In this document: one piece after another, positions 8,985 to 60,000 of the stretch
Position numbering within the stretch: the stretch's first letter is position 1
Layout of the letters: the number at the start of each line of letters is the position of its first letter
NCBI GenBank assembly: GCA_963833985.1
Contig: CAWIAD010000001.1
Span: 3,040,001-3,104,000, forward strand
Direction: 5' to 3'
Source: an uncultured Planctomycetaceae bacterium
GTDB lineage: Bacteria; Planctomycetota; Planctomycetia; Isosphaerales; Isosphaeraceae
Length of the DNA stretch: 64,000 nucleotides
Notes under the pieces: model-generated
Told to the model about the DNA's origin: nothing
Database searches by the model: none
Seen by the model: the letters and a program-made list of their open reading frames with translations, nothing else
Position numbers and translations under genes: made by a program

Positions 8985-9057
8985 TCCCCGATAGCTCAAT
9001 CGGTAGAGCGAGCGGCTGTTAACCGCTAGGTTCAAGGTTCGAGTCCTTGTCGGGGAG
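8985..9057 (+). tRNA. tRNA-Asn(GTT)
   Basis: Acceptor stem TCCCCGA/TCGGGGA, D-arm GCTC-AATCGGTA-GAGC, anticodon arm AGCGG-CT-GTT-AA-CCGCT, T-arm with GGTTCGAGTCC; CCA not encoded. Confidence 0.97.
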
Positions 9058-50340: not shown

Positions 50341-52614
50341 TTGAAGGTGGATCAGCTCATCTCCCCGTTTCGGCCCTACGTGCAGCTGAACCCGGCCTCA
50401 TTGCCGTTTTTCCTAGCCGCGGTCCTGTCGTTCTGCCTGGTCGTGCTCGCCTGGGGGCGTCGCAAAGAACCCTCGGCGCCTCCCCTCATCTCGCTGCTCG
50501 CGTTCGAAGGGATCTGGTCGTTATGTGAAGCGATGAAAGCGGTCTTGATCGACCCATCCGCACAGGCGGTGATGTACCGCCTGAAGCTGTCGGCCGTGGC
50601 CCTCGTACCGCCTTCGCTCCTGTTCTTCGTCCTCGAGTACACGAGCCGGACGGGTGCCCCGTCCTCGCGATTCAGGGTGTTGATCCTCGTCGTGCCGGCG
50701 GTCACCATCAGCCTCATTGCAACCTCCGGGGAACACCATCTCTTCCTCACGGGTATGGAACAGGTCGACATCTGGGGCTATCGGCTGCTCTCTCCCAGCT
50801 ACGGCCCTGCATTCTGGATTCATACCAGCTACTGTTATGCCCTGTTGTGCCTGTCGGCATGGCTGCTCGCCCGCTCCGCCATGGCGCTGAGCGGGGTCTT
50901 GAGGATCCAGATGCTCTTCTTATCAGCGTGCCTGTTCATCCCCCTCATCACCAACGTGGGAGACCTGCTGAAGATCATCCCGGAGCCCTACCGCCAATAT
51001 GACCTTACGGCCGCGACCTTCCTGGTGACGGGCGTGTTCGGCCTGATGCTGCTGCGGCGGTTCCATCTCATCAACACGGCGCCGGTGAGCTATTCCCTGG
51101 TGCTGCACGAGATGCTCGACGCGATCATCGTGCTCGACGCCTGGGGACGGATCGCCGGCGTGAACCGGGCCGCCCTGCGCCTCATGGGACGCCTCGATCA
51201 GGACATCGCGGGCTTCCCCGGCACCGTGATCCCGGCATGGCTTCAGATTCCTGAACATCTCTCGAAGCTGGAAGGAGCCGCCGAGCTATCGTATCGCCTG
51301 GTCCTGGACTCGCGTGATCCCGGTGCCACCTATGATGTCCGGGTCTCGCGCTTCCCGCACGGCCACGAACCGGGATGGCTGGTGATCATCCGCGACATCT
51401 CCGCGCAATCGCGCGCGGAAGCGGAGCGGACGGCCCGGATCGCAGCCGAGGAGGCCAACGGGGCCAAGGACGCGTTCCTGGCCAAGCTGAGCCATGAGCT
51501 CCGGACCCCGCTCACGCCTGTGCTCGCGATCGTTTCCGCGGCCCTCGATCGCCGGTCGATCCCCTCGGAATGGCGATCGTCCCTGGAGATCGTCCAGAGA
51601 AATGTCCGTCTCGAGGCGCGTTTGATCGACGATCTGCTGGACCAGAGCCTGATCTCGCTGGGGAGATTACGCCTGCGGTCGGAACTTGTCGAAGCGCACC
51701 AGCTCTTGCGGCAAAGCGTGGAGAACTGCGCGGAGTTTCTGCGGGATGCCGGCCTGGTCACCCGCCTTGAGCTTGGCGCGACGAGCAGCCGGCTCGCTGC
51801 CGATCCGGGCCGGCTCCAGCAAGTCTTTTGGAACCTCATCATCAACGCAGCGAGGTATTCGCACCCCCACAGCGTGCTGACGATCCGCACGCGAAACATC
51901 GCCACGGATACCATCGCCATCGAATTTCAGGACGAGGGGCGCGGCCTGTTGGCGTCGCAACTGGAGGAGATCTTCGAGCCCTTCATCCAGGGTACAACCC
52001 ACGGCCGCGAACGAGGTCCGGGCCTGGGCCTGGGGCTGTCGATCGGCCGGTGGATCGTCGAGGCCCACGGGGGAACCCTTGTCGCGGAGAGTCCGGGGAC
52101 CGGGAAGGGCGCGACGTTCCGCGTCGTCCTGCGCACGGCGGACCCCGCCGAAATGGGGCCCCTTGATCGACCGAGTCTCAGGGACGAGACCATCGAGCAG
52201 CCCTCCGCCGTAGAGCCCGCTGAAGTCCGAGAATCGAGCAAGCACACGACGATCCTGCTGGTCGAGGACAACGTGGATTCCCTGAACGCTCTGGCGATGT
52301 CTTTGTCGCAACTCGGCTACGAGGTGCACCCCGCGAACAGCGTCCGCACCGCCCTGGCCGCCGCCGAAACGGGAGACTTTGATATCATTCTCAGCGACCT
52401 GGAACTGGGGGACGGTACCGGGTTGGATCTGTTGCGTTCCATGGGCCCCGGCCGTTCGGTCCCGGCGATCGCCTTCACCGGATACGGGTCCGAGCAGGAT
52501 CGGAAAATGTGCCTGGATGCCGGCTTCGAGATACACCTCATCAAGCCCGTCTTGACCAGGCAGCTCGACGAGGCGATCCGGAGCCTCATCGAGAAACCAT
52601 CACTCAAGGCATGA
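50341..52614 (+). CDS. Hybrid histidine kinase (7TM sensor-PAS-HisKA-HATPase-REC)
   Basis: 7 TM N-terminus; SHELRTPLTP, NLIINA, DEGRG, GLGLGL, REC LLVEDN..SD..KP. Confidence 0.93.
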   Translation: MKVDQLISPFRPYVQLNPASLPFFLAAVLSFCLVVLAWGRRKEPSAPPLISLLAFEGIWSLCEAMKAVLIDPSAQAVMYRLKLSAVALVPPSLLFFVLEYTSRTGAPSSRFRVLILVVPAVTISLIATSGEHHLFLTGMEQVDIWGYRLLSPSYGPAFWIHTSYCYALLCLSAWLLARSAMALSGVLRIQMLFLSACLFIPLITNVGDLLKIIPEPYRQYDLTAATFLVTGVFGLMLLRRFHLINTAPVSYSLVLHEMLDAIIVLDAWGRIAGVNRAALRLMGRLDQDIAGFPGTVIPAWLQIPEHLSKLEGAAELSYRLVLDSRDPGATYDVRVSRFPHGHEPGWLVIIRDISAQSRAEAERTARIAAEEANGAKDAFLAKLSHELRTPLTPVLAIVSAALDRRSIPSEWRSSLEIVQRNVRLEARLIDDLLDQSLISLGRLRLRSELVEAHQLLRQSVENCAEFLRDAGLVTRLELGATSSRLAADPGRLQQVFWNLIINAARYSHPHSVLTIRTRNIATDTIAIEFQDEGRGLLASQLEEIFEPFIQGTTHGRERGPGLGLGLSIGRWIVEAHGGTLVAESPGTGKGATFRVVLRTADPAEMGPLDRPSLRDETIEQPSAVEPAEVRESSKHTTILLVEDNVDSLNALAMSLSQLGYEVHPANSVRTALAAAETGDFDIILSDLELGDGTGLDLLRSMGPGRSVPAIAFTGYGSEQDRKMCLDAGFEIHLIKPVLTRQLDEAIRSLIEKPSLKA

Positions 52615-53081
52615 TGCGAAGACTCGTCGGGATCTCGAAGAGAACCAGGTCCAGCCGCTTGCCACCGGGAACCGATGGACCAGCCGCTGGAAACGAAGCC
52701 TCAGGAATGCGGGGCAGCCATTGAGAGTCTGTCCCACATGGGGAACAATCAGAGGCCGACGGCCCTGGCCAGGTATGCGGAACAAGGGGATGAGACCGGT
52801 GAAACGGGCCTGCCGCTGGCGAGCCTCACGGGTTGACCCTCAAGCCTCTCGCGTGGGACAAGATTCCATTCTTGTCTCTTCAAATCTTCTGATGATCCTC
52901 TCGTTTCGTGACAAGATGTAGAGTCGAGGTGTGGCGCGGTGGGCTCGAGTCGATGGCTCGGCTGGGCCTCGTTTCCACACCCCGCTCATCAAACTGGACG
53001 GGCGGTGTTCCCGCATCCAGCTTTCGGACAAGGCTTGTCTCATCGGTTGAGTTCACACGTTCGCTCACGAAACCATCGCGG

Positions 53082-53681
53082 CTAGGTTCGTTGCAGCTGG
53101 TAAAGATGCAACTCCTGGTGCAGGTATCTGTCAGGGTAGCGTCTGAGCCCCTGACCCGGCACCTTGAACTTCGCACACAACCACTGACGTACCCGGTAGC
53201 GGACGTGGTGGTTGACTTGGCGATAGGCTGGGCTCACCGTTCCGATGCGAAAATAGTTGGACCAACCGCGGAACTTGCGATTGATCCGACCAATCTGCAT
53301 CTCGACGTCCTGTCCAGTGGTCTGGCGCGTCGTCATCGCACTGATCTCGCTGCACAGCCGAATGATCTTCTTCCGCGATGGGCGTGACCCTATGTAGGAT
53401 CGGCCCGTTCGTCGGTCGTAGTTCCGGCCGAGGGTATAACCCAGAAAGTCGAACGTCTCCTCAGGCAGGTGGCACAGCCGCGTCTTGGTCTCGTTCACCG
53501 TTAACTTCAGCCTGGACATCATCTTCCGCATCACCGTCATGGCCTCTTCGGCCGTGCCGCGACAGCAGATGACGAAGTCGTCCGCATAGTTGACGATTCG
53601 CGCGACCAGACGCCGCTCGTGTCCACCAGTCTTCCATCCCTTCACAAATCGTCGCATGTAGATGTTGGACAACAATGGTGA
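53082..53681 (-). pseudogene. Group II intron RT/maturase, C-terminal part (interrupted)
   Basis: SPLLSNIY..YADDFVI..LKLTVNETKT..FDFLGY, then maturase X domain (RGWSNYF); no endonuclease domain. Confidence 0.92.
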
Positions 53682-55335
53682 GATCACGCCCCCAACAATG
53701 TTGCGAACTACGTTGTTGGGGGCCTTTCTCAAAAGGGGACGGACTGACCCGATACACGATGCGGACCTCCTGCTCGTCGATCTCGACCTTCTTCACCAAG
53801 GCCCGAACCACCTCCCGTCGCGTGGCCCAGTCCGGCTCTTGCAACCCTTGCGAGACGCGACGTGCGAACTCCTCCAACTGACCGATCACCAGTCGCAATT
53901 CCGCCTCTTGGGCGGCCTCGCCGATTCGTTGTCGATGCTCCTCCGCCAATCTCGAGAGGCGCGTCCTTGCCGCCGAGATCCGGGGCTCGAACTCCGATTT
54001 GTCGAGCAACCCGTCGCCGTAAGCATCGATTAATCGAGAAATCATCTTTTTCACATTATTTATCAATTTGCCGAGATGCTCCACCTCCTGATTCGGCCCG
54101 CCCTGGGCACCCTGCAGCCGCCGCTCGTACTCCTCCCGGACCCGCTCCGGCTCGGACAGGAGACCTCGTAAGTCCTCCCAGACGGCAGCGTCAAGGATAT
54201 CGGTGCGGATCTGCTTGTTCCAGCAGAGGCGCTGCCCGCCGAAACGATAGGCGTCAGAGCCCGTGCAACGGTAGTACGCGTAGCGGACCCTACCCTTGCC
54301 CTCGAACGCGGCTCGGCTCGTCGGCTTGCCGTAGCAGCCGTAGCCGCAGCGCTTGCAGACGACCAGGCCCTGGAGCAGATATCGGCCACCGCCGGGCCGG
54401 TCGCGACGGCGTTGCCGGTTCTCTTCAAGCTGGGCCTGGACAGCCAGGAAGAGGTCTTCGCTCACCAGCCCGGGGACTTCAATGAAGATTTGATCTTCCG
54501 AGGATGTATCAACCCGTGAGACCGGTCGCCGGGAGTGTTCGGGGCGGCCTCGCTGCGGGCGGAGGCGTTGAGGTTTGAACTCACCTGAGCGCGTCTTGCC
54601 GAAGGCCGCGGTCCCCTTGTAGGCAGGGTTCTTGAGGATCAACCAGACCGTCGCGCGATCCCAGGCCGATTTCCCGGTCCGCGTCGGGATACTGTCGCGC
54701 CGGAGGCGTCGGCACACCTCGCCGATCGAGCACCGTTCCTGACCCACCCATTCGAAGATCTTCCGCACGACCCGGGACTCTTCAGCGAGGACCTGATAAC
54801 GCGCCTCGCCACCTCCCTCGTGCTTGCCGATGTAACGGTAGCCGTACGGTGCGCCGCTGAGGACGTTGACCGAACCGCGGCGGGCGGCGTGTTGCTTGCC
54901 CCTGCGGCAACGCTCCATGATCTTGGCGCGCTCGTATTCCGCGATCATTCCCTGGACCTGAAGCAGCAGGTCGGCTTCCGGACTGCGGCCGACGGGGTTG
55001 CGCAAGAAGACGACCTCGACACCGCACCGGATAAGTTCCTCAAGGATCAAGACCTGATAGGCATACTTGCGTGAAAGTCGATCCGGATCGAGCATATAGA
55101 GGCGGTCGATGGCTCCAGCGGCGGCTTGGTCCCGAAGTCGCTCGAGTGCCGGTCGGGCCAGGATGTAACCGCTGACGCCGTCGTCCACGAAGTGCAGTTC
55201 GGGCTCGCATTCCAAGCCATCAGTGGCGATCCGCTGAGTGACCGCCTCGAGCTGGCTGGCGATCGTGTCCTCCTTCTCCTGCTGCTCCCCCGAAACCCGG
55301 GCGTAGAGCGCCACGCGGAGATTGTCCGTGATCAT
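53461..55335 (-). CDS. Large serine recombinase (resolvase + recombinase + Zn-ribbon + coiled coil)
   Basis: ALYARVS (catalytic Ser), DDGVSG..RPAL, DRLSR, AEYER, APYGY, LKNPAYKG, LLQGLVVCKRCG..YYRC. The last 73 aa are encoded outside the element. Confidence 0.95.
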   Translation of the reverse strand: MITDNLRVALYARVSGEQQEKEDTIASQLEAVTQRIATDGLECEPELHFVDDGVSGYILARPALERLRDQAAAGAIDRLYMLDPDRLSRKYAYQVLILEELIRCGVEVVFLRNPVGRSPEADLLLQVQGMIAEYERAKIMERCRRGKQHAARRGSVNVLSGAPYGYRYIGKHEGGGEARYQVLAEESRVVRKIFEWVGQERCSIGEVCRRLRRDSIPTRTGKSAWDRATVWLILKNPAYKGTAAFGKTRSGEFKPQRLRPQRGRPEHSRRPVSRVDTSSEDQIFIEVPGLVSEDLFLAVQAQLEENRQRRRDRPGGGRYLLQGLVVCKRCGYGCYGKPTSRAAFEGKGRVRYAYYRCTGSDAYRFGGQRLCWNKQIRTDILDAAVWEDLRGLLSEPERVREEYERRLQGAQGGPNQEVEHLGKLINNVKKMISRLIDAYGDGLLDKSEFEPRISAARTRLSRLAEEHRQRIGEAAQEAELRLVIGQLEEFARRVSQGLQEPDWATRREVVRALVKKVEIDEQEVRIVYRVSPSPFEKGPQQRSSQHCWGRDLTIVVQHLHATICEGMEDWWTRAASGRANRQLCGRLRHLLSRHGRRGHDGDAEDDVQAEVNGERDQDAAVPPA

Positions 55336-55700
55336 GGTTTGTCAAACCCCCCCGACCTTGGACTGGATAGTGTGGACCACAGTCGCGTGGTTGCGGCTGG
55401 GTCGCGGCCGATCCAGGCGCTGCGAAACGACCGGGATCAAGACCTGATATGCACGCGCGATCAATTGCTCCTGAAGCCGAGTGAACTCGAAGTGGCGGGT
55501 GACAGGAGGACTGAACGTGGGCCTCCGTGGGGACGTGATCATGTCGACTCCTCCTCTCCGAGAGCGCGGCCGCCAGCCTGCCTTGGATCGGGATCGAGTC
55601 GGGGCTGCCATCCGTGCCCGTACTTCGGTCGAAGCCGCGATCTGGAAATGACAGAGTCAGGAATCAGGGACGATTTTGCAACATTGTTGGGGGCGTGATC
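53682..55700 (-). mobile_element. Minimal large-serine-recombinase element with 23-bp terminal inverted repeats
   Basis: GATCACGCCCCCAACAATGTTGC (53682-53704) and its perfect reverse complement (55678-55700). Removing 2015 bp leaves one GATC and restores the RT frame (GTPQGAPI-SPLLSNIY). Confidence 0.92.
55342..55542 (-). CDS. Small accessory protein upstream of the recombinase (66 aa)
   Basis: Strong RBS GAGGAGGAG 5 nt before ATG; MITSPRRPTFSPPVTRHFEFTRLQEQLIARAYQVLIPVV..; stop 6 nt before the recombinase ATG. Confidence 0.7.
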   Translation of the reverse strand: MITSPRRPTFSPPVTRHFEFTRLQEQLIARAYQVLIPVVSQRLDRPRPSRNHATVVHTIQSKVGGV

Positions 55701-56395
55701 GGTGCACCTTGCGGTGTACCCATCCCCTGGTCTTTATTCCGGGTCGTTCGATGGCGCTGCCCCTTCCCGTCGGTTTCTTCCACCGGTGTTTCCAGCCACA
55801 TCTTGATCAGCCGCAGGACGCGACCGTCGCTGATGCGCCGTGACGCCGATTTCATTAACTCGGAATGGGGTATGCTATCGAAATATCCAGATAAGTCCGC
55901 GTCCACCACCTCGGTGTGCCCCGTCTTGAGCAGCCGTTCGACTTCGCGGACGGCGTCCAGGGCGCTGCGCTCCGGGCGGTAGGCGTGTTGTTCCGGCTCC
56001 AGGTCGGCCTCGAAGATCGGCTCCAAGACCAGCACCGCAGCCATCTGCACCACACGATCCTTGATGCAAGGAATGCCCAGCGGCCTTTGCTTGCCGTCCC
56101 CTTTGGGGATGTACACGCGCCGCACCGCCTGGGGTTGATACGTCTCCTTACGAAGTTGTTCCGCCAGTTCGTCCAGCCATCGTTCCTTCCCGGACGCCTC
56201 GATGTCGGCGAAACTCTGGCCGTCGATCCCCGGTGCGCCGCCGTTGGCACGGCAGCGTTCGTAGGCGAATCCCAGAACGTCACGTCGATAAATCTTGTCG
56301 TACAGGACGTAGAACCGATAGTTGGGCGCGTTCTTCGCTTTGGTGTGCAACGCCGTCTGCAACTTCCCGACCTTCAGTGGAGGTGATAGACTCAC
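55697..56395 (-). pseudogene. Group II intron RT/maturase, N-terminal part (interrupted)
   Basis: RFYVLYDKIY, GAPGIDG, RVYIPKGDGKQRPLGIP..DRVVQ, YRP.RSA.DA, VVDADLSGYFDSIPH, GTPQGAPI. Confidence 0.93.
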
Positions 56396-57061
56396 GCCAA
56401 TCTCCCGGCTGTCTGCCGCTTGTTGCGTTGACCTTGAACCAAGGCCCCTTCCCTCGACCGGAGTTACCCGGCGTCGACGGTACTACGGGCCTCTCCGCCA
56501 CCCCAGGCAGCCCGGCCGGTCCCTCGCGGGCGTCCGGTTGAGGGTCACGCGCCCTCACCGCTTGGGGTTTCCCGTGTTGTGTTGATCTCCGTGTGCCGAC
56601 ATGCCGTCGTCAATACCCCGGTGGCCCGCTGGGTTCTGATCGCTCGTGGGGCGGCCTATTCCAACCGTTTCCCTTTCATCCCCAGCGACGGCGGCCTTCC
56701 CCATATTCCAGCAAGGTCGGCGACCACATTGGACTTTTCGAGGCCTGCTCAACGTTCACTCGCGTTACGGCCTGTCGGTTCGCTGCATCGCCAAGCGACA
56801 CATCTGTCTCGAAGGCTCCGACGGTTTCGTCTCCTCCACCGCCGCTCCGATAGCTACCGGCTGGAGCGACCCAGTTGCCGGGTGGGAGTTACACCCACTG
56901 AAGACCAACACCTTTCCACGGCGCACCGGAATCGTGTCCCACGAGGCCGGACCTCATTGCATGGACTCTGAGAAGTTTGACGCAGATGAACGAACGAATC
57001 AAGAGTACAGGTGTTCCGAACCACGTGCTGTCTTTCATTCAGCACAGACCGGCCGCGGGGC

Positions 57062-60000
57062 TCAATCGCCTTGGGCAAAGGGCCTGGCCGGGAAGGCCAC
57101 GTCCATCATCAAGAGCTGGAAGTCTAGCCGGGTGCGGAGCGGCTCCAGTGAGGACTCGCCGTGGAGCTCGGGGGTCCGGAAGCCCTCGGCGGTGACCCGG
57201 CGGAGGACCGCCATCGCCTTATCGGCCTCAACCTGCCGTTCACCGGCCGGGATGCCCGAACCTTTCATGCCGGCGATTTGCGACAGCATCGCGTGGCAAC
57301 CGGCCTCGAACATCCCGAGCTCACCCGAGCGATCCGGCAAGCTCTCTCTCGCCACGAGCGCCAGGCGGAACTCAGCGACGGCGCCAGGGATGTCGCCGGC
57401 GGCGAGCCGGACCTGTCCCGATCGCAACCGGCACTCGCACATCCGGTAGCGATAGGCCCGGACCTGCGGGAAATCCCGGACCACCGCCTCCCTCATCGCG
57501 ATGGCCTCGTCACAGTTCGCCCGCGCCTCGGCCAGCCGTCCTTGAATGCGCTGGATCTCGGCGATGTTGATGAGGATGTTCGACAGCTCGTTCCGGGTCC
57601 TGGCCAGGACGTCGGGAGGATAGGTGTCGATGAGCTTCTGGAAGACGGCCCGCGCCGCCTCGTATTGCTCCAGGGCCTCATCCAGCCGGCCCAGGCCGAA
57701 GAGCAACCAGCCGAGGCGGTTGTACGAGATCCCCAGGTCGACGGGCTCGCCATATCGACCCGGATTGTCGTCGACCACCTTCTTCCAGGCGGCCACCGCC
57801 GCGCGGGAGTCGGCGATGGCCTCCTCCGCACGCCCCAGCTCGCCGGCAAAGTCGCCGCAGCCGCCGAGGCACTTGGCCAGGAACCGGCGATAGTCGACGA
57901 TGCCGGGATACTCATCGGCGAGTTTCCCCGCGATGTCCGCCCCCGCGCGATACGCCGATAACGCGTCGGACCACCGGTCCTGACTCCGCAGCGATCCGCC
58001 CATGTTGAAGTAGCTGACCGCATGGCTGATCCGGACCTGGGGGTCGTCGGGATCGGTGGCGGCGAGTTCCCGCGAGATCCGGAGCGCCCGCTCCTGATCG
58101 GGCAGCGACTCGGCGGCCCTCCCGAGAGCATTCAGCGGGCCGCTGAGCGCGTGGAGCATGCTCGCCAGGGACAGGAGCGCCTCCTTGTCCTGGGCGGAGA
58201 CGGGCCCGCGCGGCCGGGACGCGAGACCTTTCTCGACGGTTTCGCAGGCCCTTCGGAGCCAGATCACCGACTCTTTCTCGTTAGCCGACGCGTGGTACCA
58301 CCAGCCGATGCTCTGGAGGATCCGGCCTGCGACGAGGTAGACGGGCTCGGTCATGCCGTCCGCGGGCCGGAGCGTTTTGACGATCGCCAGGGCTTCGTCG
58401 TAGCAGGCCCTGGCCGCGGGCCGGTCGGACATCCCTTCCATCCCGAAGCCGGCGGACCTCAGGTTCCGCGTCAGGTCGAGCTTGATCGCGTCGGTCGCCC
58501 CTGGTCCCTCCGCGAGGGCGCGTCGGACCTCGATCGCCTTGCGGTAGATGGCCAGGGCGTCGCCGATGGAGAACGTGAGTTCGCCCAGCTCCTCGTAGGC
58601 GCGGCCCAGTGCGGCCCGCGATTCCGCGTCCGTCCGCTGCCTGAGCAGTCCCTCGAGCCGGCCGTAGAAGTCGGCCGCGCCCCGGAGCAGCTTGCCGCGG
58701 AGCTTCTGGAACTGGCCCTGCTTCAGCAGCAAGTCCTTGCTGATCTCGCCGTGGAACAGCTTGATCGCGTCCATGGCCAGGTTGAACCGCTCGCGCTCGC
58801 GGAGATTTGCGGCCTGGAGATCGGTATTGGCCCGGGTGACGTTCTCGTTCGCCTCCCTGAGCTCGGAGTTAGCCTCGACGACCCGGGCATTGGCCGAGGA
58901 CAGAGCCTTGTTGACCCGTTTCAGCTCGCCGTTGGCCTGGGCCTGGACGCCCGAGACTGCTACCAGGCCGGCCAGGGCCATCAACATGGCGGCAGCACAG
59001 GCGGTGACACCGGTACGGTGCCGCGTCAACCACCGCATCAGCTTGCGGCTCCACGGCTCTCTCCAGGCCACGACCGCCTCGTCGGCCATCCAGCGCTCGA
59101 TGTCGTCGGTCAGAGACTTGCAAGAATCGTAGCGGTCTTCCGGGTTCTGCGACATTGCCTTGAGGCAGATCGCCTCGAGTGCCCTGTCGATTGTGGCGTA
59201 GAGCTTGCGAGGAGACGGGAAGTCGCCCCGCTGTACCGCGCGCGATATCGCGACAATGTCTCCGCCTTCGAACGCTGGCTTCCCGGTCAAGAGACAGTAA
59301 AGGCAGGCGCCGAGACTGTAGACATCGGAGCGAGGACCGAGCTGGTCGATCTCGCCCCGGGCTTGCTCGGGGCTCATGTAGGCCGGCGTCCCCAGAGCGC
59401 TGCCGGGCAGAGTGTCGGCGCTGCCGCTGGCCGAGCTCGGCACGAGCATCCGCTCTTCCGGGTGGATCGTCGGCTCGGCCCGGCCCAGCGGCTTGGCCAG
59501 GCCCCAGTCGACCACCAGGGTCTCGCCGTGCTTGCCGACGATGATGTTGGCCGGCTTGATATCCCGGTGCAGGACGCCGCAGCTGTGTGCGTAGCCGATC
59601 GCGTTGCAGACATCGATGAATCGCCGCAAGAGCTTGCGGAGCTCCAGCGACCGCTGGCCAGGATCGTTCTTCAGCGTCTCATCGCCGTGGAAACTCTCGA
59701 TGGCTTCCTTGAGACTATCTCCCCGGATGAACCGCATGGCGTAATAGGGACGGCCGGTGCCGTACGTGCCCAGGCCATACACCGGGACGATCCCGGGGTG
59801 TTCGAGCCCGCCGGTGATCTCGGCCTCGATCAGGAACCGCTGTCGGCTGGTGGGGTCGTCGGCGTGGTGGTCGAGGATCTGCTTGAGCGCCACCTCACGA
59901 TTCAGCTCGGCATCCAGGGCCACGAAAACAGCCCCCAGCCCGCCGCGGGCATGCGGCCGGAGCACGCGGAACCGCTGACCGTCGCTGGTGGCTGTGCCGA

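Follow-up and report, generated by a model that had tools for sequence, protein, structure and literature searches.

RmInt1 of Sinorhizobium meliloti, which homes into a multicopy insertion sequence (IS), is one of several described systems that resemble the group II intron analysed here, found on the minus strand of a 64,000-nt stretch (the window; positions below are counted from its first letter) of the genome of an uncultured Planctomycetaceae bacterium (family Isosphaeraceae; GCA_963833985.1, contig CAWIAD010000001.1, positions 3,040,001 to 3,104,000). As described in PMC4075523, RmInt1 (class D) is likewise endonuclease-less (En-less) and IIB-type, with the fork-dependent priming that we propose for the window intron; it differs in its reverse transcriptase (RT) class, in a strict pairing between exon-binding site 3 (EBS3) and intron-binding site 3 (IBS3), and in a target that is not a 24-bp palindrome. 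The class F, or variety g3, introns (Ni.ha.I1, D.a.I1; Toro and Martinez-Abarca 2013, PMC3552965; Nagy et al. 2013, PMC3753933) share with the intron analysed here an En-less protein of RT and X domains of about 430 aa and an intron length of about 1,990 nt. The loci given for them in Table S2 of PMC3552965 are non-coding sequence or transposase genes, with no repeat family named in that table, whereas the target here is a defined multicopy palindrome and EBS2 pairs over 4 nt after a 3-nt gap.

Insertion sequences that target repetitive extragenic palindromic (REP) units (ISPsy8, ISPa11, ISPpu9 and ISPpu10; Tobes and Pareja 2006, PMC1525189) are described as using one REP position, with many neutral sites, but they are DNA elements, whereas the element here is an RNA-guided retroelement; the same source records a Pseudomonas putida group II intron that stands at REPs in only two of nine copies. 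Class C (IIC) introns, as characterised in PMC7923331 and PMC12584367, also enter repeated, extragenic, hairpin-forming sites (terminators, attC), but with a 3-4 bp EBS1, no EBS2 and insertion behind the hairpin; a 6-nt EBS1, the presence of an EBS2 and insertion inside the hairpin rule out class C for the window intron. The terminal repeats of the TIRtrons, or TIRYT elements, described by Di Nocera et al. (2013, PMC3733652) and Quentin et al. (2018, PMC6006769), hold most of the sister introns of the window intron. The literature searched, which took in few subscription journals, contained no REP- or terminal inverted repeat (TIR)-homing IIB-type or class F intron and no RT-targeting recombinase. 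Each layer of the locus resembles known biology; what is new is the combination and the likely hitch-hiking of a recombinase element on the intron.

Our analysis makes it highly probable that the window holds one of 13 copies of an En-less class F (g3)-type intron, all inserted after position 16 of a 171-copy palindrome, and that these sites were reached by retrohoming guided by EBS1 and a 4-nt EBS2; the window copy would need the RT of two intact copies.

The intron and its palindromic target

The intron runs on the minus strand from 56926 (first base, GTGCG) to 52918 (last base, ..CTCTAC), 4,009 nt in all, and bears the marks of a IIB-type group II intron, namely a 5' GUGYG, a 3' AY, the AGC triad of domain V and a bulged A in domain VI; an Rfam domain I match lies within it. 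It splits a REP-like arm, as a first reading of the sequence alone (the sequence-only reading) had claimed: the rejoined 24-nt arm (56942-56927 plus 52917-52910) matches a second arm on the plus strand (52853-52876) at 21 of 24 positions, with 33 nt between the two, and both start with GTGG. The parts of the locus are as follows.

56927..56942, minus strand: 5' exon, arm positions 1-16 (the 5' part of the REP-like arm), with IBS2 GGAC at 56939-56936 and IBS1 ATTCCG at 56932-56927
52918..56926, minus strand: group II intron, assigned by sequence to the class F / variety g3 type; its length is 4,009 nt in the window and 1,994 nt in the two intact copies of the genome
56731..56734, minus strand: EBS2 GUCC, pairing with GGAC at -13 to -10; GUCC/GGAC here, GACC/GGUC in relatives
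56705..56711, minus strand: EBS1 UGGAAU (56710-56705), identified by covariation with IBS1, and delta (56711), which we take from the IIB layout
56653..56668, minus strand: clade-specific hairpin with the second UGGAAU (56663-56658) as its loop, not an EBS
55700..56395, minus strand: 5' part of the RT gene, through the GTPQGAP motif
53683..55699, minus strand: large serine recombinase element, 2,017 nt including both AT cores, with 22-bp perfect inverted ends (55699-55678 and 53704-53683)
55342..55542, minus strand: 66-aa open reading frame (ORF) of the recombinase element, without a Pfam family, with matches in 25 of 30 related loci
53461..55335, minus strand: recombinase ORF (Resolvase, Recombinase and Zn ribbon), crossing the right end of the element, with its stop codon within RT gene DNA
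53082..53682, minus strand: 3' part of the RT gene, with SPLL.., YADD and the maturase X domain and without a match to an endonuclease domain
52918..53023, minus strand: domain V (53023-52991), which has a 5-nt loop and its AGC triad at 53022, and domain VI, with a long stem and a bulged A
52910..52917, minus strand: start of the 3' exon, arm positions 17-24 of the REP-like arm, from the rejoined arm
52853..52876, plus strand: second, empty REP-like arm of the inverted doublet

The match between the arms is not a chance one, because a weight matrix applied to the whole genome (score of at least 20) recovers 171 intact units of this GTGG-headed palindrome family, grouped in 75 clusters, whereas the reversed genome yields none, and because the stem is conserved and includes a compensatory pair. 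Each unit has a GTGG head, an 8-bp stem and a 4-nt loop (4+8+4); the head letters are kept in 163 (G), 165 (T), 164 (G) and 165 (G) of the 171 units, at least seven of the eight stem pairs are kept in 147, and the compensatory pair is C-G in 130 and A-T in 27. Adjacent units form 37 head-out doublets against two pairs of the other kind. Long ORFs cover 75% of the genome, whereas they contain only 31 of the 171 units, so that the repeat is multicopy and mostly extragenic, as the sequence-only reading had supposed. The repeat was found in 9 of 13 same-genus genomes and in 0 of 27 others.

According to PMC6006769, a REP has a GT(A/G)G head, a stem of 7-20 bp and a loop of 2-5 nt, and the search rule of that paper adds at least three G/C among the first four stem bases. 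The repeat agrees in head, stem length and loop length, and is multicopy, extragenic and arranged in inverted doublets, but its two main arms start with GACA and GGTA and have two G/C each. The cognate REP-associated tyrosine transposase (RAYT) that the sequence-only reading had proposed to look for did not come to light: for the seven Y1 matches in the genome the nearest unit is 10.7 kb away, and none of 29 + 56 + 13 further Y1 loci has Y1 genes flanked by the repeat, the one doublet near such a gene being 1.3 kb away. Palindromes that share the 4+8+4 layout but differ in sequence flank one RAYT of the genome and its homologues, and three other palindrome families (55, 75 and 72 copies) flank Y1/RAYT genes of their own. 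With no cognate RAYT found and a departure from one published search rule, we call the family REP-like.

In all 13 genomic copies the intron follows position 16 of the unit, where the loop ends. The exons of the other copies are thus not unrelated ones, the register being identical in 13 of 13 cases; twelve copies lie in clear repeat units, and one (copy g) in a degenerate site outside any recognisable unit. Seven have the 4,009-nt form seen in the window, two carry the inner element inverted, two are intact (1,994 nt), one is split over two contig ends, and one is an older deleted copy (95%), in which EBS1 is unchanged and the exon has decayed. The copies are otherwise 99.8-100% alike, which points to a recent burst. 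Comparison of their flanks showed that shared sequence is confined to the repeat arrays, two copies being simply neighbours; beyond these arrays the flanks differ, which makes the insertions separate events, and a segmental duplication as the source of the copies is ruled out, each copy having its own flanks. Of 12 sites tested, all lie outside long ORFs on the 5' side and 11 on the 3' side.

It might be argued that the copies, or the element nested in them, are artefacts of long-read mis-assembly or segmental duplication, given that the assembly breaks at one copy and that the mosaic pattern of single-nucleotide polymorphisms (SNPs) among copies could be polishing noise. The individual flanks of each copy speak against this, as do the element junctions, both bridged without differences by short-read contigs (possibly of the source sample), and the recurrence of the same nesting, seen in 21 further assemblies and also on a plasmid of Pseudomonas putida; we consider an artefact exceedingly improbable. 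The break itself falls at a recombinase-element end inside an intron copy (G000:C2:1-1245 and G000:C1:1-747), where the two contigs likely join. Copy h, one of the two with an inverted element, has in its 3' part an ISAs1-like transposase, its family judged by eye (G000:C2:2147530-2148836).

Pairing guides and the choice of site

The guides were assigned from an alignment of 75 related loci, in which 56 intron starts could be placed (our own copies included), leaving 54 rows without tandem copies, 51 of them unique. The EBS1 loop is bounded by GCCGAC and GGAAG, and its pairing with the final six bases of the exon reaches 0.896 across 32 distinct EBS1 sequences, against 0.442 +/- 0.036 (maximum 0.578) in 2,000 shuffles. 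The sequence-only reading had offered UGGAAU at two positions (56710-56705 and 56663-56658) as EBS1 candidates; both positions are correct, and the first is indeed part of the EBS1 loop, where it covaries with its target. The second was rejected as an EBS, being the fixed loop of a clade hairpin that is identical in 29 relative rows with unrelated targets and is paired at only 0.339. EBS1 and this fixed loop share the same seven letters in this genome only, an identity that may be due to chance or to copying.

EBS2 is clear inside the clade and in this genome. GUCC (56734-56731) pairs with GGAC at positions -13 to -10, separated from IBS1 by a 3-nt gap, and relatives with an EBS2 of GACC have a GGTC target. 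The intron also selects among the arms of the palindrome: GGAC is present at 13 of 13 occupied sites versus 51 of 171 empty units (Fisher p 4.6e-7).

These sites bear on the possibility that targeting is guided by structure, as in class C, with the ribonucleoprotein reading the doublet as a single-stranded hairpin or a cruciform and with only a secondary role for the EBS match. Such a mode would suit a target that forms a conserved hairpin within an inverted doublet, a specificity that pairing rules alone under-explain, and the poor pairing of some sites. Yet the cut is at the loop end and both IBS elements overlap the stem, IBS2 entirely and IBS1 in part, and recognition is for this reason likely by sequence and not by the hairpin. 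Moreover, the three other palindrome families (55, 72 and 75 copies), one of which has the same 4+8+4 layout, contain no copy of this intron, and within the occupied family only GGAC arms are used. Structure-guided targeting is therefore, in our judgement, very unlikely.

Further folding of domain I was uninformative: the energy fold of the whole domain gave no signal (z -0.87) and a column covariation scan gave noise only, also around a CUGGGU/ACCCAG pair that is present as an alpha-alpha' candidate, alpha' of class F / g3 introns being expected in DId3, at a stem-loop tip. In domain V, the loop (53010-53006) reads GAACA in the window copy and in copy a, and GAAAA in the other 9 of 11 aligned copies; the tertiary contact of the window copy may be weaker than with GAAAA.

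Class, sister introns and homing

The RT of the intact copies, encoded in domain IV, has 432 aa, with RT and X domains only and no match to an endonuclease domain, and scores 356 bits on TIGR04416 (cut-off 300). Description of the intron as endonuclease-less in the sequence-only reading therefore holds for the family, but in the window copy the RT frame itself is cut at codon 233 by a recombinase element that this reading had overlooked. Because its RT gene is interrupted, the window copy is unable to move on its own. The intact RT is 50.6% identical to that of Ni.ha.I1, 46.9% to the A. caldus g3 entry, 35.6% to g2 and 29.8% to g1 (the latter two references taken from Table S2 of PMC3552965), and in the tree it joins Ni.ha.I1 with a support of 0.968, while g2 and g1 branch separately. 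The 5-nt domain V loop and long domain VI agree with features described for IIE/IIF and for IIF, respectively (PMC3753933). Judged by its sequence, the intron is thus of class F / variety g3 type, an assignment made from a tree built without a class E reference.

Within this class, the RT falls inside a clade that also comprises 23 rows drawn from 11 assemblies (FastTree support 0.959), and the targets of these sister introns differ from the palindrome. The motif GGGG(A/T)C(A/G) stands at the same register in 16 of 23 sister rows and in 0 of 27 rows outside the clade, the one match among 28 outside rows being a second copy from a clade locus. The sister target 15-mers flank Y1 transposase genes on both sides as inverted pairs, and in one genome they number 101 copies versus 4 in the control. 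The terminal repeat of TIRYT elements has the consensus GGGG(A/T)(C/G)A(C/G) (PMC3733652, PMC6006769), and on this sequence evidence the main target of the sister introns appears to be the TIRYT terminal repeat of tyrosine-transposase elements. Introns in these repeats are unmentioned in the available text of both papers, the word 'intron' occurring 0 times in that of PMC3733652. The closest relative, 91% identical in domain I, has an EBS2 of GUCC, an EBS1 of AGGUAU that differs by two letters, and a TIR-type target. TIR-homing is therefore the likely default of the clade, and palindrome-homing a likely recent retargeting through EBS1.

Several related loci show further arrangements. In L043, L057 and L058 one intron begins right at the end of another, and L023 holds two copies 3 kb apart. 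The Thermoguttaceae introns L022-L024, which do not belong to the clade, have as their target a TIR-type repeat on its opposite strand, and may have come to this repeat independently. The genome of the window contains a further group II intron, unrelated to the first (G000:C2:4725768-4726874), whose RT is 36% identical and keeps an intact PQG motif without the recombinase element; it stands behind a hairpin with an arm that resembles a TIR-type target.

The intron site of the window lies between a co-oriented kinase gene (ending at 57062), whose stop is 135 nt ahead of the intron, and a convergent histidine kinase gene (ending at 52614); predictions of promoters and terminators were at chance level. 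Nine of the 13 copies are on the presumed leading strand, which we marked by what we take to be the KOPS motif; this bias is not significant, and the GC skew is noisy. In the mechanism that we propose, intron RNA would be transcribed by read-through, here from the co-oriented kinase gene, and would splice and then reverse-splice into single-stranded target DNA, with EBS1 UGGAAU pairing with ATTCC(A/G) and EBS2 GUCC with the GGAC upstream. Priming would take place at the replication fork, as described for En-less RmInt1 (PMC4075523). The short EBS2 of class F introns is described as dispensable for splicing and proposed to act in homing (PMC3753933). Historically, the clade would have homed into TIRYT terminal repeats, which carry GG(A/T)C at the same register; a change of EBS1 with EBS2 left in place would then have made the abundant palindrome available for insertion, a new target that lies mostly outside genes. 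The homing into a multicopy intergenic repeat with many neutral sites envisaged in the sequence-only reading is supported by the shared register, the multicopy repeat, the EBS1 covariation and the position of the sites outside long ORFs, and none of the three outcomes that this reading had named as refuting it came about.

A number of observations weigh against this reading. Full IBS1 pairing is present at only 10 of 13 sites, with 4/6 at two others and 3/6 at the old deleted copy, and over the whole set of relatives EBS2 covariation is weak (best cell 0.68), its register sliding by one in several of them. The base after the intron is A at eight, T at three and G at two of the 13 sites; if EBS3 is the nearly invariant A of GAAGGC, where we presume this candidate to lie, the expected EBS3-IBS3 pair is mostly absent. 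RmInt1 requires this pair (PMC4075523). Among empty GGAC-N3-ATTCC(A/G) sites only 25 of 75 are repeat units, rising to 27 of 53 with an added G at -14; pairing rules by themselves thus do not confine the intron to the repeat, and protein contacts, DNA state or the loss of genic insertions must add to them. The palindrome-intron junction appeared in no other genome or metagenome record searched, including 0 of 5 repeat-bearing genomes of the same genus; two metagenome matches were both chance ones without the intron. Exon-exon, element-free or circle joints were absent from four DNA and four RNA contig sets, but relatives dominate these sets and shares are small, so that they bear on neither expression nor habitat. 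SNPs among the copies are mosaic, meaning that the copies recombine with one another or that the assembly mixes them. On the side of the sister introns, no more than 7 of 23 targets agree with the strict published GGGGWSAS, one TIR pattern, with 11 matches, is scarce in the genome it comes from, and the tree supports are FastTree local values on pieced proteins.

Part of this evidence would also be expected from survivor bias, that is, if the intron entered any GGAC-N3-ATTCC-like site without preference and only insertions in extragenic repeats survived. Half to four-fifths of the empty rule-matching sites are not repeat units, 75% of the genome is in long ORFs, and copy g sits in its degenerate site. 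However, both EBS1 and EBS2 match the repeat consensus exactly, 12 of 13 copies are in clear units, and the sister introns match the repeats of their own hosts, which needs repeated adaptation to repeats. We thus hold survivor bias alone to be unlikely, and favour guided retrohoming into the palindrome.

The recombinase element in the RT gene

The element inside the window intron (55699-53683), with its perfect inverted ends and AT core, splits the RT at GTPQGAP-I-SPLL. Its Resolvase, Recombinase and Zn ribbon domains, 2-bp core and precise insertion identify it as a large serine recombinase element. The site-specific large serine recombinases described by Durrant et al. (2022, PMC10083194) have the same domains, a 2-bp core and one conserved target gene across diverged hosts; the window element differs from them in its 2-kb size, its perfectly inverted ends, its occurrence in both orientations and its target, an intron RT codon. 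Searches for 'reverse transcriptase', RVT_1, GIIM and 'group II intron' in eight supplementary files of that paper gave no match. The 66-aa ORF could, at a guess, encode a directionality factor; its Atlas matches all scored under 0.9 and were unnamed.

The same target recurs in relatives. Element matches were found in 22 of 120 family genomes (from the two best places per genome), and of 29 related element loci examined, 27 show an end, which in 26 of these 27 lies at the same PQG-x-x|SP codons of intron RTs; counted by ends, 46 of 49 are at these codons. The RTs concerned are 30-83% identical to that of the window. Among distant plasmid homologues, four of 48 records were examined: one, Pseudomonas putida pDK1, has the element at the same RT codon, and three of the four are not in RT genes. 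A search of 300 phylum-wide genomes with this query, in which four candidates per genome were scored, gave no recombinase at E <= 1e-120. The genome of the window also has two solo copies of the element, indicating that its targeting is not absolute.

At three related loci (L218, L220 and L241) the element has two upstream or two downstream RT flanks, which points to recombination or rearrangement between intron copies. Other insertions in related RT genes (L046, L048, L054-L056) comprise an insert of about 2.4 kb (residue 172) and a further intron, nested at residue 267.

Eleven of the 13 intron copies have been hit, or were once hit, by the recombinase element. In relatives its two orientations are balanced (11:12), whereas in this genome the seven copies with the same orientation all carry one intron SNP allele, and the two inverted and two intact copies carry the other (Fisher p 0.028). 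This pattern suggests that the element probably invaded this intron on a few occasions only, later copies of the two arising together; that the copying proceeded by retrohoming, with RT supplied in trans, is the account to which we lean slightly. The element is in our reading a parasite of intron RT genes, and on this account it was multiplied as intron cargo.

A contending account, which concerns this element only and whose chance we place a little short of even, has it spread among already placed introns by gene conversion or hit each of them separately, so that the 4-kb form never moved through RNA. The mosaic SNPs would fit exchange among copies, the more so as 1.2 kb and 0.75 kb of near-identical DNA flank the element; the two solo copies and the two orientations show an element active by itself; and the C allele of the SNP may be ancestral, since the old deleted copy has C too. 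Separate hits, on the other hand, should yield the two orientations in similar numbers, whereas here the orientation goes with the SNP allele, and flank exchange between sites was not observed.

Taken with retrohoming of the loaded intron, these layers could form a wider picture, which we offer tentatively and with rather more doubt than confidence. The class F clade would live on repeats scattered by HUH/Y1 transposases, having switched from TIRYT repeats to the REP-type palindrome by two EBS1 letters, while an RT-killing serine recombinase element, inserted at the PQG codon, would use the crippled intron as an RNA vehicle and multiply by reverse transcription with RT in trans; parasites would thus be nested in three tiers, with an RT switch that can be reversed. 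Elsewhere in the window, a tRNA gene lies at 8985-9057.

For class F introns, the locus would represent a natural target switch between two transposase-made repeat families, with the closest relative only two EBS1 letters away, and it makes retargeting and the role of the short EBS2 directly testable. It would also add retroelements to the known users of REP-type repeats. The recombinase element is a possible control on intron bursts, as the share of copies hit suggests, and a source of rearrangements between introns, and it would provide a small integrase that has a symmetric site and targets a conserved RT codon.

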